This document shows positions 15,001 through 21,000 of a DNA stretch of 64,000 nucleotides, in pieces. This DNA is from Thermoanaerobaculia bacterium. Its GTDB lineage: Bacteria > Acidobacteriota > Thermoanaerobaculia > Multivoradales > UBA5704. A program made the position numbers. The stretch spans positions 144,898-208,897 of the forward strand of contig DATLOC010000028.1 of assembly GCA_035536455.1 (NCBI GenBank), read 5' to 3'. Within the stretch, counting starts at the first letter, position 1, and every line of letters starts with the position of its first letter.

Positions 15001-18000
15001 ACGTCCGCGTCCTGCAGGTCGCTGAAGGCGTTGGCGCGGTAGTTGACGTTGACGTCGAGGTGGAGGCGCGGGATGAGCGTCATCTCGAACCCGGCCCGCG
15101 CGGCGTAGAAGGGGTCGGAGAAGGTGTCCTCGAAGTCGTCGGAGTAGAGCGTGCCGACGCCGGCGCCTATGTAGAGCCCGTGGCCGACGAGCAGGTAGGC
15201 CTGCGGCGAGTAGACCGCCCCCGCCTCGACGCCGCCGAAGTCCTCGGGGAAGTACTCGAGCCCCAGCTCGAAGCGGAAGAGCCCGGCCGGCAGGATCTGC
15301 CAGGAAGCGACGTAGGCCGTGCCGTCGTCCTCGAGATCCACCCCCTCGTCCACCACGTCGTCCAGCGTCCGCCAGTAGTGGACGCCGCCGCCGATGCGGT
15401 GCTCGGCGGCGCCCGCGGCGGCGGGGAGCAGCAGGGTGAGCGCCGCGAGCAGCGGCAGGGTGCGGCGCGGGGCGAGGCTCTTCATCGGCACGTCCTCCTC
15501 TTCCTGGCTGCGTAAGATAGCGCCCCCGGCACTTCCCGTGGCGAAGAAGCTCCTCCTCTCCCTCGTCTCCTGCCTGCTGGCGCTCGGCGCGGCGGAGGCG
15601 GCGGTGCGGCTCTTCGATCTCGCGCCCGAGGTCTCGATCATCCAGAAGGGGCGCTTCCGCCTGGCCCGCAACCCGAAGATCGGCTACGAGCCGGTCCCCG
15701 CCCTCGACTACCGCGGCACCAGCCGCTCCTTCTGGGACTACGAGGGGGCGAGCAACAAGGAAGGCTTCCGCGACCGCGACCACGCGGTCGCCAAGCCGCG
15801 CGGCGTCTACCGCGTCGTCGTGCTCGGCGACAGCATCGCCGCCGGGCTCAAGGTCAAGCACTTCAGGAACACCTTCCCGCCGCGGTTGGAAAGGCTGCTC
15901 GCCGAGAGGGGGCTGCCGGCGGAGGTGATCAGCCTCGCCGTCTCCGGCTACAACACGCAGCAGGAGGTCGAGCTGTTCAAGGAGAAGGGGCTCCGCTATC
16001 GCCCCGATCTGGTGCTCGTCGCCTACTCGCTGACCGACCGCGAGCGGCTGGACGGCGACATCCTCAAGGCCCTCCTCGAGGCCGAGGGCCGCGGCCGCGG
16101 CGTCAGCCGGGCAGGCGCCCACCCGCTACTCGTCAAGAGCGCCCTCTACCGCGCCCTTTGCTACCGCGTCTTCGCCCCGCCGCGCCCGACGGAGGCGAAA
16201 GCCGCCGCGGCGACCGAGGAGGCGCTGGCCCAGATCTCCGGCGACACCGTCGCCCCTTCCTTCGCCGAGCTGGCGCGGCTGGCCGAGGAGCACGACCTCG
16301 AGGTCGTCGTCGCCGTCTTCCCCCGCCTCGTCCGCCGCTTCGCCAGCTACCGCTTCGGCGACCAGCACGAGTACGTCGCCGGCCTCTCCCGCCGGCACGG
16401 CTTCCATCACCTGGATCTGTTGCCCCCGCTAGCCGCCTGCCGCGCCGCGGCGCCGGAGAAGCCCCTCGGCAGAGACAGCTACCACCCCTCCCCCCACGGC
16501 CACGCCTGCGTGGCGGCGGCGATGGCGGAGGTGATCGGCGAGCAGGCGCGGCGAACGGGAAACTAAGCCGCGCCTCCTGGAGATGTTCCGGCGAGACCTC
16601 GAGATTCATCTCGGGGACCGGAAGATAGATCTCCGGCACCGGTAGTGCTCTAAGAAGTAGCACCTGCCGCTCCCCGGCCTAGGCGGCGGCAGCCGCGGCT
16701 TCCAGAAGGTCGGCCATCGTCCACGGCCGGCGGATGAGTCCGGCCTTCATCGCGGGCGGCATCCGCAGCTTGGCGTGGCGCTTCACAAAGTTGTAGTAGC
16801 ACGCCCACAGAGCGACCGCTGCGCGAAGATTCTCCCGCTTCCGGCTGAAGCCGTTGCTTAGCCTGGTGAAGCGCCGCAGGTCCGTCCTCACGGTCCAATT
16901 CAGCCGCTCGACGTGCGACGTTGAGGCCCGGTACCCGTCGGGCGTACCGGAGACGACGACCGTTTCGCTGGTCAATAAGCGCGGCGGTGCGTACCGCCGC
17001 GCTTCCTCGCCTCCCGCGCTCACGTAGGTTTTCACCACAGCGCAGTGGTCAACGCGCGCGCCCAGGTGGTACTCGGCGGCGCGCGGGTAAGCGTGCCAGC
17101 CGTCCGTCGAGAGCTGAAACCGGCCCGACGTGGCGCGCGCCAGCTTGCCCATGAAGTCGTGCGTATCGTCCGCACTCCGCCGGCCGCAGTGCCACGTCAG
17201 CAGCAGCTTGCTCTTCTCCTCCAGTGCCAGGTAGGTGTAGCAGTCGCCGAAGTCCGGGCTGAGCTGCTTCCACTTCTGAGTGCGCGCCTTGGCGCCGACC
17301 CAGGTCCATAGCTCGTCTGCTTCAACGTGCTCGACCGGGAGGCCGGAGATGCGCTCCTCCAGCAGCCGCTCGCACCGCTCGCCCGTCTCCACCAGGAGCC
17401 GCAGGAGCGTGGCCTGGTGGATGCCGGTAGAGCGCGAGACGGCGCGGACGCTGTTTCCCTCGCAGAGCAGGTGCAGCGCGTGAGCTGCCTTGCTCGGGTC
17501 AAGCCGCATCTTCCCGAGCGGCGAGGTGCGCGCCTCCGTCGAGTAGCGCCGACAGACGCGGCACTTGTACCGCTGCCGTCCGAGGCGATCCCGTCCAGCC
17601 TTACGCGCTTGATTCTGGCAGTTGCAGCAGACCATCGGCGGGCTCCTTGTCGGATGCCCGGCCGGGAGCCATAATCGCCGTGCGGGTTCGCTCGGCTCCG
17701 GTCGGGCGGATCATGGCCCCGGTGGTCGTTAGCGCGACTGCCGGGGCCGGTTTGTCTTCCCTCATGCTGGACTTACTGTCTCACAATAAGTAGAGCCTGT
17801 CAAGTAGTTCCCGTATCTTTTTTGTGCTACCCTATTGCCCATGCCAAAGACTGCGAAGCCAAAGCGGCGGATGGGCAGGCCGCCCAAAGACCCTGCCAAG
17901 CGCGCCTCGGATACCTTCCACTTCCGCGTCCAGCCCGACCACGGCGAGCTGATCCGGCAGGCGGCCGACCATGCCGGGCTCGACGCGTCGGCCTGGATTC

Positions 18001-21000
18001 GGGATCGGACGCTGAAGGCTGCGCGGCGCGAGCTGGGGGACGGGCGCCGGCAGGGCTAGGGATCGGACCCGCTCCCGCCGGTAGGGCATGGGTATGCGAG
18101 AGCGAGCCAGGCTAGGCCGTAGCAGCTCGGCTAGCTGACTGCTCCCGCGCCAGCGTCCGATAGCGTCTGGACGCATGGCGGCACCTCCTTTCCGACGCGG
18201 AGGGCCGCCGAGTGGGGTAGACTCCCCCTTGCCTGAGCCCCGGCGGGTTCGCGTCTGGGTTCAAAGATCGCCAGCGTCGCAACCGCTGGCGATCATCATT
18301 TTCGGCGCCACCGCCCCTCCCAGTACACCGGATTTTGGAGTGCTCGAATGGCCCGAGTCGGGTTATTCGGCAGTCTCTCTGTCCCGAGTCGGGTTATTGA
18401 GTGGCGCGAAAAACCCGAGTCGGGTTATTCGGAGCGTCGAATAACCCGAGTCTGGCGGGGAGCGGGGGACAGGAAGATGGATAGGTAGCCTTCCGGTAGT
18501 GTCAGCCGCCGCGCGGCGCTTAGTTGCTCCCAGACCTTCGCATCCGTCACCCCCAGCGGAGTCTCAAGGCTCAAGACCTCGGCAACGTCCTTGGCCCCTA
18601 GACCCTCGGATTCCGCGTCGAGCAACCTGAGGTAAAGCGGCCACAGCTTGCGATGGTGCTTGATGCGGGGCGGGCGGTACCTCACCACAAACTCTTGATG
18701 CCAGCGCAGCGCACCTAGGACAGCTAGCGCTTGCGGTTTCAGCGGCAGGTGAGCGTCAAAGACCATCCACGGGTAGCGATCCCCTCCAGGTCCGGGCGGG
18801 CGGGATTCGTCAGGCCCCCTTGTTTCGAGCTTGCCCCAGCCAATAACGAATCCGAGCTTATGCGGCAGGTCGGTCGCAGGATTCAGCAGCCCGTGCTCTA
18901 GGTGCCACCTGGCTTGCTCTTCGCTGGGAATGCAGAAGGAGGCATCTACGGGGTCTTCCTCACCGCTCCAGAAGAGCCTCTTACTCATATCTGCCGCGTC
19001 ACCGAGACGTGCTAATGCCCTCGCCCAGTCGTCTCGATAGTCGGGGTTTCTCCGCAGAAACTCCCATGCCCATTGAAGGTTGGGAATCTTGAAGCGAAAC
19101 TCGTAAGCAGCGGCGTTGCGCCAGTCCGGCAACTCGCACCCCCACCGGGCGCCCACCGCGGAAAAGGAAGGAGGCGCGGCGGGCCGAGCGGTGGGGTCTC
19201 GGCTTTCGGCGGCCAGTCCTAGCCGCGCCTGAGAAGGATTCTAGGGCAGGGGGGCGGCGGGTGCCTGCGCGCGTACCCACTGGCGCGCCAAGTCCGCCGC
19301 CAGCGCCTTGCACTCGCGCGCATAGTGGAACGTCCCGAGCGCGCGCAGCTCCGGCAGGTAGGTGAGCGTGTACGTCTTGCAGCCGGGCCGGCCGGCGCCG
19401 CCCTGGTCGCCACGGTAGAAGGCGAACGGCTCGGCGATCCAACCGCGCAGCTCGGGCTCGGCGCCGTCGAGCAGGCGCACCCGGAAGCGCCCAAGGCGCC
19501 ACGCGAGGGGGAGCGGCTGCCCCGCCCTCGCGCGCGCCTTCAAGTAGGAATCGAGCGCGGCTCCAGCCCACGCGCCCACGCTCGGGAAGCCTTCGGCTTC
19601 CGCCGCGATCTTCCAGCGGGCCGACTGCGCGACCGTGGCGCGGACGTGGAAGCTGGCGACGCGCAGGTCGTTCACTTCCGCGCCTTCAACTTCGCCAGTC
19701 GAACCCGGAGCGCCTTGAGCATCGCCTCCGGCAACCGCGGTAGCACCTCCTCGGCGCGCGTGACGGCGTTGTAGGGGTCGGCGTCCTCCAGGTAGCCGGT
19801 GAGGTGCGCCGCAATCTGCTCCAACTCCTCGCGCACGTCCGACAGGCCCAGGTAGCACCAAAAGAATGCTTCCGGGCTCGTCTCCAAATACTCCCCGCCC
19901 AGGTTGGCAGGCATGTTGAGGGAGTCGCCCGGCCGCCACTTCGGGATGTCCTGGGGGATGTCCAGCGACGGCGCGCGCTCGCGCTCCTTGCCGCGAGCGG
20001 CGAGACGTTCCACGCTCGCCGTCACGATATGAAGCGCGGAGAGGATGCCGTGGACTTCCGCCCTCGCTTCGGAAATCCGCCTCTCCCCTTCGGGCGTTAG
20101 CTCCTGGACAAGCTGCTGCGCAAGATCGCGGTAGGGGGTTGGCTTCCGCTCGGGGATGGGGATCGGCGGGACGGTAGACTTCCTGCGGTCGGGCATAGGG
20201 TCGTCTCCTGTGCTCGGCAAGTGCTCGGCGGAGGTGCGACCCTCCGCCGAGCGCGCCTGTTTGTAGGGGAATCAGCTCCCCGGCCAGGAGAGTAGGGCGG
20301 GAAAGTGGCATCGGAGCTAGGTGCTACTTAATAGAGCACTACCCCGGCACCCGGAGATCTATCTCCAGCCGTCGGAGATCTATCTCCAGGACCGGGAGAT
20401 ACATCTTCGGCACCCCGAGATCTATCTCCAACCGTCGGAGATACATCTCCGAGACCGGGAGATAGATCTTCGTCTATAGGAGATTTATCCCCAGCGCCCC
20501 GAGATATATCTCCGGCACCCCAAGATCTATTCCGAGGCCCCGGAGATCATCTTCCGGGCCCGGGACTTATCTCCAGCCGTCGCGGGAACGGCTACCATGG
20601 GCCGCGGAGGCATCCGGCGGCCCTCCGTCCCCCTCGGGACGTGCCGGGTACAGCCCCCGCGGCCGTCCGTACAAGCTCCCCAGCGCCCGGGGCGTATGGA
20701 GGCTTAGTTACAGGCTCCCAGCGGCCGGGGGCAAGCTTCCCGATGTGCCGTACTGGCATCCCGGCTCTGCTTCAAGACGCAGGGAGTCTCCCATACCCGA
20801 CGCCCGCCTAAAGCTCTCCGCCCGTAGGGCGTGAGATCGTCCGCAAGGCAGCGGTCGCAAGGTGGAACCCTCTGCGCCTTACGCCCCATCTCCGCCGCTT
20901 GCCTTGACAAAACGGCCCTGCGCACCTAGATTACTTGACAGCGTTAGGCCGTCAAGAGAGGAGGCGCCATGCCCAGAATCCTCCCTCCCTCGGAACTGAG

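Follow-up and report, generated by a model that had tools for sequence, protein, structure and literature searches.

Partition centromeres can be built of tandem dyad repeats, as in sopC of F (12 x 43 bp), parC of pSK41 (20-bp repeats), and parC of R1, and a replicon carries one of them, beside parA/parB or parM/parR. Iteron origins, of which lambda ori with its palindromic iterons is one example, contain ~17-22-bp repeats at roughly two-turn spacing that bind the initiator. The ARG boxes of ArgR/AhrC are 18-bp palindromes with a 4-bp AT centre; they occur in pairs in the promoters of the arginine regulon, 21 bp from centre to centre, and are bound on one face by the oligomer. The mycobacterial interspersed repetitive units (MIRUs), which are minisatellites of Mycobacterium tuberculosis, are 46-101 bp long and oriented, include small coupling open reading frames (ORFs), and are not palindromic. 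Repetitive extragenic palindromic (REP) elements are the targets of the insertion sequences (ISs) IS1397, ISKpn1, and ISPpu9/10 in Enterobacteria and Pseudomonas (Tobes and Pareja, 2006; PMC1525189). The present analysis concerns an array of 21-bp palindromic units that is split by an IS1-family transposon in a 64,000-nucleotide stretch of a Thermoanaerobaculia bacterium (assembly GCA_035536455.1, contig DATLOC010000028.1, positions 144,898 to 208,897; hereafter the window). A split repeat beside a low-GC island tempts one to see the relic of a plasmid, yet this array is very probably a native chromosomal repeat, a member of a dispersed family of Thermoanaerobaculia-type Acidobacteriota. Arrays with the same 21-bp period and unrelated unit sequences are, moreover, the preferred targets of the transposon's relatives.

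Anatomy, dispersion, and conservation of the arrays

The array was composed of a left part (16575..16640) with three units of 21 bp and a right part (20352..20600) with 11 units (to 20579) and a degenerate terminal unit, GGGAACGGCTACC; neither part was assigned a strand. After positions 16641-20351 were removed and the sequence was printed in a 21-bp register, 14 units were counted over a total of ~294 bp, and the unit that spans the junction (16638-16640 + 20352-20369) fell into perfect register. Each unit was made up of the core SRAGAT-NN-ATCTYS, i.e., (G/C)(G/A)AGAT-NN-ATCT(C/T)(C/G), and a 7-bp spacer after it. Tandem Repeats Finder (TRF) reported a period of 21 and a period of 63 with 89% matches, both at 20345-20472, as well as a short period-21 stretch at 16602-16642, and a repeat-family search grouped 16571-16633 with eight copies inside 20345-20575. 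Together with the CCGGCACC target-site duplication (TSD) and the restored register, these searches confirmed that a tandem array of 21-bp dyads was split by the transposon, as the first-pass annotation had proposed. Its length of about 290 bp was also borne out, whereas its estimate of about 15 units has to be lowered to 14, and the three-unit super-period of about 63 bp that it described was limited to the middle of the array (about units 0-5) and was lacking in the remainder. The core GAGATNNATCTC was matched 11 times in the window with ≤1 mismatch, ten times within the array, compared with 1.1 expected, and none of 100 shuffles reached 11. The first unit (16579-16592; GGAGATGTTCCGGC) is a variant of the kind with which arrays of this type also terminate elsewhere. 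On the right side, the last two of the 11 units were degenerate and one unit (unit 9 of the window array, W) had a 1-bp deletion. The array started 9 bp past the stop codon (16566) of a GDSL-lipase gene and ended 325 bp ahead of a promoter-like site (TTGACA-17-TAGATT); it is thus extragenic, as REP elements and bacterial interspersed mosaic elements (BIMEs) are. Its flanks had a GC content of 64-71%, and its position at the edge of a low-GC island was confirmed (0.58-0.64 GC at 20-24 kb, against a background of ~0.72).

Similar arrays were dispersed over the chromosomes of related bacteria. A scan of one genome per species (185,579 species) for GAGATNNATCTC-N9-GAGATNNATCTC, which represents two adjacent cores at 21-bp spacing, yielded 31 loci (loci are numbered with the prefix L). 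Nine of these were located on one 5.46-Mb Acidobacteriota chromosome (OY969474.1; L003-L007, L012, L014, L015, and L028), six in the Thermoanaerobaculia metagenome-assembled genome (MAG) SMAG_U1604, one of them with two arrays, and three in the Thermoanaerobaculia MAG SMAG_U2854, with more in other Thermoanaerobaculia and Acidobacteriota bins. Under this strict pattern, at least nine, seven, and three arrays with diverse neighbours were therefore present in three genomes, and the counts (~10 per genome for this type) are lower bounds because two perfect neighbouring cores were required. The window contained two arrays in 64 kb. Most loci had 7-12 units exactly 21 bp apart, a few having fewer units or being truncated where the contig ends, and over the whole family the tandem arrays comprised 7-17 units. 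On OY969474.1, eight of the nine arrays lay between 2.0 and 3.9 Mb and the ninth at 5.43 Mb, a clustering that may be around the terminus or the origin.

The arrays read as intergenic, since the codon-usage model, for which these same genomes had served as training set, gave only low-scoring or short ORFs that overlapped them, and they were found between co-directional, divergent, and convergent gene pairs alike. Among 90 flanking proteins, Pfam matches included radical SAM, phasin, DnaG, and catalase proteins, but no family was enriched and no Par, Rep, integrase, or plasmid- or phage-like protein was detected. Six-frame clustering for a conserved neighbouring gene grouped only translations of the arrays themselves, and the core strings returned nothing relevant from the literature. 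All-against-all BLAST of the flanks revealed that several arrays are positional orthologues across genomes (L001/L006, L005/L013, and L003/L021). In L003/L021, ten units paired one to one, and the array was 94% identical between flanks of 89-93% identity; in L005/L013, the array was 80% identical and the flanks 93-96%. Neither the 72,556 plasmids nor the 50,697 phages searched by BLAST contained a match to the reconstructed window array, and the pattern was absent from 2.9 million viral contigs. An exact metagenome search for the uninterrupted junction returned nothing, so that the intact array has no sister-strain example. The neighbouring gene was present on just one other contig (L032, Logan SRR8544467), which was identical to the window and began inside the IS.

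A relaxed three-unit pattern, AGATNNATCT x3, matched at least 120 metagenome loci, mostly low-GC repeats that were identical across the whole unit and were therefore considered chance carriers of the core; members of the family were found only on high-GC contigs (L034, L068, L075, L077, L089, L101, L134, and L146). The notion of a cross-phylum motif was accordingly dropped. Arrays in Bacteroidales (L018) and Mesobacillus (L027) had ordinary metabolic neighbours and are probably unrelated.

Conservation was confined to the two arms of the unit. In a logo of 188 units, AGAT and ATCT reached 1.6-1.95 bits and two outer positions 0.8-1.3 bits, and the centre and most of the spacer were near zero, so that the conserved element is a 14-bp palindrome, comparable to the palindromic units of REP/BIME. 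Within individual arrays of the family, identity was 0.88-1.0 in the core and 0.40-0.62 outside it. The arms varied independently (left G to A vs. right C to T, Fisher p = 0.17; outer pair, p = 0.41), which fits half-site recognition better than base pairing, but the arms barely vary and this covariation test has little power. When the arrays were checked for terminal inverted repeats like those of miniature inverted-repeat transposable elements, some closed with inverted GGAGATGTTCC units and others did not.

Several additional features of array placement were observed. Many arrays began or ended 8-16 bp from a stop codon (distances and stop codon/array coordinates: W, 9 bp, 16566/16575; L153, 8 bp, 1834/1842; L163, 11 bp, 4379/4391; L001, 16 bp, 248/264), and the distance to a start codon was never less than about 36 bp; all dispensable intergenic space is apparently taken up by the arrays. 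At L003 (3093-5565), L012, L014, L021, and L134, the array belonged to a small gene module that is present in several copies per genome, in the order XRE helix-turn-helix (HTH) gene, two pterin-4a-carbinolamine-dehydratase-like small proteins, array, 127-aa coiled-coil protein, and 246-aa protein. The module array was located 36-40 bp from each neighbour, and L014 shares only the gene start beside the array.

Transposon targets and a proposed binding model

The element that interrupts the window array is an IS1-family transposon of 3.7 kb with passenger genes (16641..20343, minus strand). Its 25-nt terminal inverted repeats (16641-16665 and 20319-20343; GGTAGTGCTCTAAGAAGTAGCACCT) start with GGTAGTG and are 92% complementary, and the 8-bp duplication CCGGCACC is present at 16633..16640 and 20344..20351 (no strand assigned), the first copy comprising the last 2 nt of a core and 6 nt of spacer. 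The 318-aa transposase (16679..17635, minus strand) is of the IS1-type DDE class (Pfam DDE_Tnp_IS1). Its match to NCBIfam transpos_IS1 (1.2e-25) was below the curated cut-off, and the IS1/IS1595 Zn domain matched as well; the protein is 100% identical to one from a Thermoanaerobaculia MAG, and its homologues are named 'IS1 family transposase' by their sources. Divergent from the transposase gene is a gene for a small NikA/TacA-like ribbon-helix-helix (RHH) protein of 74 aa (17835..18059, plus strand; third-position GC, 0.87; Pfam NikA-like, 2e-5, below the gathering score). Its position is kept in related IS copies, with 38-41% identity to the equivalents in L153, L157, L163, and L165. The passenger genes, both on the minus strand, encode a 243-aa protein with a Trans_reg_dom / RovC-like DNA-binding domain (18425..19156) and a protein of ~145 aa (19241..19690) with 59% identity to a gene of the IS-like element that abuts the L004 array. 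Between the RHH and Trans_reg_dom genes, three 31-bp direct repeats containing CCCGAGTCGGGTTATT and one inverted copy were found at 18342-18456, which may be a candidate operator for the cargo regulator.

Two further arrays of the window type abutted the ends of related ISs, at L146 (transposase 36% identical) and at L004 through the passenger gene just mentioned. Contigs were fetched via transposase homologues because the ascertainment bias had to be removed, and this gave nine independent IS copies, of which eight were inserted in or against tandem arrays. Five of the nine were bordered by array sequence at either end, with an exact 8-bp duplication and a restored register, namely L157 (AGAGCCGG), L153 (CCATCTGC), L160 (TGCGAGGC), L163 (CTCGTACG), and L165 (GCTTCCGG). 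L159, L161, and L164 had an identifiable IS end against an array, and one copy, L154, did not lie in or against an array. In all eleven array segments examined (ten loci, at least eight unrelated unit sequences), 21, 42, or 63 was the best period, and nine of the eleven had been ascertained via the IS and not via the period; by the same measure, only 0.9% of the window was 21-periodic. The unrelated units included GGGGAA-nn-TTCCCC, TCTGCC-AT-GGCAGA, AGACCTCGCGAGGTCT, and GTAC-, GGAAAG-, and GGCCCC-based sequences, and the closely similar IS copies L163 and L165 occupied different array types. These results suggest that the element reads a property shared by the arrays, not their sequence. The insertion register was equivalent in the GGAGAT and GGGGAA types (2 nt of core and 6 nt of spacer); no register common to all types was apparent, as the L153 and L160 types differ. 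Members of this IS clade were 3.7-5.3 kb long and comprised a transposase, a divergent small RHH gene, and variable cargo, which included GmrSD in two copies; their TSDs were always 8 bp.

The preference for 21-bp arrays and the conservation pattern can be joined in a binding model. The unit consists of a 14-bp palindrome (6-bp arms and a free 2-bp centre) and a free 7-bp spacer and recurs every 21 bp, or two helical turns, in arrays inherited at fixed intergenic positions among housekeeping genes. Each palindrome would be bound by a dimer of a host DNA-binding protein, and the 21-bp spacing would align the dimers along a single helix face to form a cooperative or wrapped nucleoprotein tract of 150-300 bp; alternatively, the array might be a phased, curved tract that is read by a structure-sensing protein. 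The bound or phased state, and not the sequence, would then guide the target choice of the IS1-family clade, one member of which split the window copy. A rigid 21-bp period across unrelated sequences points to phasing on duplex DNA, because neutral expansion and RNA hairpins fail to explain it, and dyad-symmetric cores with independent half-sites and free spacers point to dimer sites on one helix face or to a phased curved tract. The strongest reason to expect proteins bound along one face is still the unit length of two helical turns with a dyad core, which the first-pass annotation had pointed out. For the cell, such a complex might act in local DNA topology or nucleoid organization.

Several observations weigh against this model. 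No binding protein for the arrays was identified, and a specific binder for each type would not be parsimonious with at least eight unrelated unit sequences. Inside apparent operons, several arrays are separated from a start codon by 36-40 bp or follow a stop codon by 8-16 bp; a stable roadblock would be awkward there, and a reading at the RNA level or a neutral one fits just as well. The arrays also fold strongly as single strands (z = -6.8). The protein-binding mechanism is therefore held tentatively, at somewhat less than even chances, and a compromise figure for identity and mechanism taken together stands at about even. As a lead only, L161 (3139-6064) carries ArgR-like genes (Arg_repressor domain) beside its IS-flanking 21-bp array, with SLFN/AlbA and nSTAND in a defence-like island, and these genes may encode a candidate array binder.

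Alternative explanations

One alternative is that the arrays are REP/BIME-like elements that act as single-stranded nucleic acid, i.e., that they are transcribed as part of 3' UTRs or of spacers within operons and their hairpins stabilize mRNA, terminate transcription, or stall replication forks, and that the IS reads a hairpin or cruciform. The hairpins could have a 5-bp stem with a 4-nt loop, or form between units as 6-bp stems with 7-nt loops. Predicted unit hairpins ranged from -6.2 to -15.9 kcal/mol, and the strong folding of the whole array would agree with this explanation, although its z value is as for any palindrome array. The dispersed intergenic distribution is also like that of REPs, many arrays start 8-16 bp past a stop codon, palindromy is kept across the unrelated cores GGAGAT/ATCTCC, GGGGAA/TTCCCC, and TCTGCC/GGCAGA, and REPs are documented IS targets (PMC1525189). 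However, hairpin function would not require at least eight unrelated families to keep strictly to a period of 21 nt, no arm-arm covariation was seen within the main type, and arrays were also present in divergent promoter regions (L014, L026, and L028). No U-tracts or terminator-like sites were found within the window array, and Rfam gave no match to the arrays above chance. The second array of the window, at 31882-32133, is built of non-palindromic units, which likewise does not fit hairpin function. On balance, this explanation appears unlikely.

The 31882-32133 array also has a 21-bp period and consists of two inverted halves, ~6 units of GGGCAAGCGGGAAT followed by ~6 reverse-complement units, which form a composite inverted repeat of ~250 bp. 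It is located in a low-GC stretch, ~1 kb from tRNA-Gln (33176-33249). As regards other tRNA genes of the window, ARAGORN predicted a tRNA-Ser(GCT) at 48209-48293 that was absent from the Rfam tRNA model matches at the gathering score; either it repeats the anticodon found at 36135-36228 or it is a pseudo-tRNA.

Functionless minisatellites, which slippage or unequal exchange would expand to fill intergenic space and which an IS would tolerate or prefer as harmless repeats, are improbable to a similar degree. The 63-bp super-period and the homogenization of centres and spacers array by array are expected of such repeats, as is the way in which the arrays reach stop codons yet halt at least 36 bp short of start codons, and the L005/L013 arrays diverge faster than their flanks. 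On the other hand, neutral drift would not hold AGAT/ATCT near-invariant while the spacers fall to 40-60% identity, nor would a single 21-bp period be expected in unrelated families. The conservation of unit number and order in L003/L021, at an array identity no lower than that of the flanks, also argues against neutrality.

The first-pass annotation had suggested that the array may be what remains of the origin or centromere of an integrated plasmid-like element, comparable to plasmid iterons or partition sites, or else a large regulator-binding array; in the latter case, it could be an operator for the adjacent 'unknown/XRE-ImmA' operon. Tandem dyad units at two helical turns do resemble sopC, pSK41 parC, and palindromic iterons, and the array does border a low-GC island. 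However, the operon (20969-22797) was identified as a RosmerTA anti-phage defence pair, in which the RmrT toxin (213 aa; PADLOC, 3.8e-16) precedes RmrA (396 aa; PADLOC, 4e-120 over the full length; Pfam HTH_3 + Peptidase_M78); downstream of the pair lie small ORFs and an HTH gene of the MqsA-like kind. Pfam, NCBIfam, and PADLOC, applied to the genes between 9.9 and 30 kb, detected no gene for replication, partition (ParA/ParM/TubZ, parB/parR), or integration in either the island or the transposon, and a search around the island revealed no convincing inverted repeats or attachment sites at its borders. The island is a RosmerTA defence module rather than a plasmid remnant, and an operator role for its operon is unlikely because the array lies 325 bp from the promoter-like site. 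Unrelated housekeeping genes flank arrays of this type at many chromosomal loci, and no such array was found in the plasmids, phages, and viral contigs searched, a distribution that largely corresponds to the dispersed REP-like element that the first-pass annotation had named as refuting its own proposal. An origin, centromere, or operator is thus very improbable. Finally, in favour of a protein-coding heptad repeat (21 bp = 7 codons), the period is divisible by three and some arrays in these high-GC genomes are traversed by long ORFs. This explanation can nevertheless be dismissed almost entirely: the conservation is dyad-symmetric and not codon-like, some arrays contain indels of a single base (W unit 9; the spacing of 43 in L014), the array-crossing ORFs have non-coding profiles of GC by codon position, and the window array starts past a stop codon.

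Comparison with known systems

The arrays share with partition centromeres the helically phased tandem dyads, on which many dimers should assemble as a single nucleoprotein structure. Unlike centromeres, they are multi-copy and chromosomal and have no par genes, whereas an adjacent partition operon and a single plasmid-borne locus are typical of the former. Iteron origins are similar in repeat length and two-turn spacing; in contrast to them, the arrays lack a rep gene, DnaA boxes, and an AT-rich unwinding element, and are present in many copies per chromosome. The arrays resemble MIRUs in being dispersed intergenic tandem repeats of a high-GC genome, often inside operons, but differ in their 21-bp, palindromic units. 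The 21-bp spacing of the palindromes is that of ARG boxes, but the array units are 14-bp palindromes in long arrays.

REP/BIME elements are similar in more respects. Both they and the arrays are short extragenic palindromic units that occur in many dispersed chromosomal copies, are often clustered between genes, have no tie to the function of the neighbouring gene, and attract insertions preferentially from certain IS elements. On the other hand, the arrays are long and head-to-tail with a rigid 21-bp period, tens rather than hundreds of copies were seen, and the unit sequence changes completely between types while the period stays fixed. They have no GTAG-type motif, and no partner among the REP-associated tyrosine transposases (RAYTs) is known for them, although RAYTs were not searched for. 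The IS that targets the arrays belongs to the IS1 family, unlike the REP-targeting IS elements (IS3 or IS110).

With regard to target choice, Tn5053-family 'res-site hunters' reportedly select their targets via a bound or bent site, and the same is said of the IS1 hot spot at the integration host factor (IHF) site in pBR322. In these cases, as with the arrays, the transposon does not choose by sequence; for the arrays, a bound protein or a bend would take the corresponding role. For a phylum that is known almost exclusively through metagenomes, the analysis describes a repeat family whose conserved trait is the two-helical-turn period and not the sequence, and it exposes a transposon clade that locates arrays of any sequence, so that target choice by DNA structure or by a bound protein becomes directly testable. 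It is possible, though doubtful, that arrays with a 21-bp period and freely varying units represent an unrecognized class of Acidobacteriota chromosomal site in a nucleoprotein or curved state, which the IS1-family clade evolved to recognize as a landing pad. If so, the arrays would be safe harbours through which defence genes spread, cargo such as GmrSD being inserted without damage to genes. Interspersed palindromic repeats are already known as IS targets; what is new here is that the arrays are defined by their period and that the IS chooses them regardless of unit sequence.

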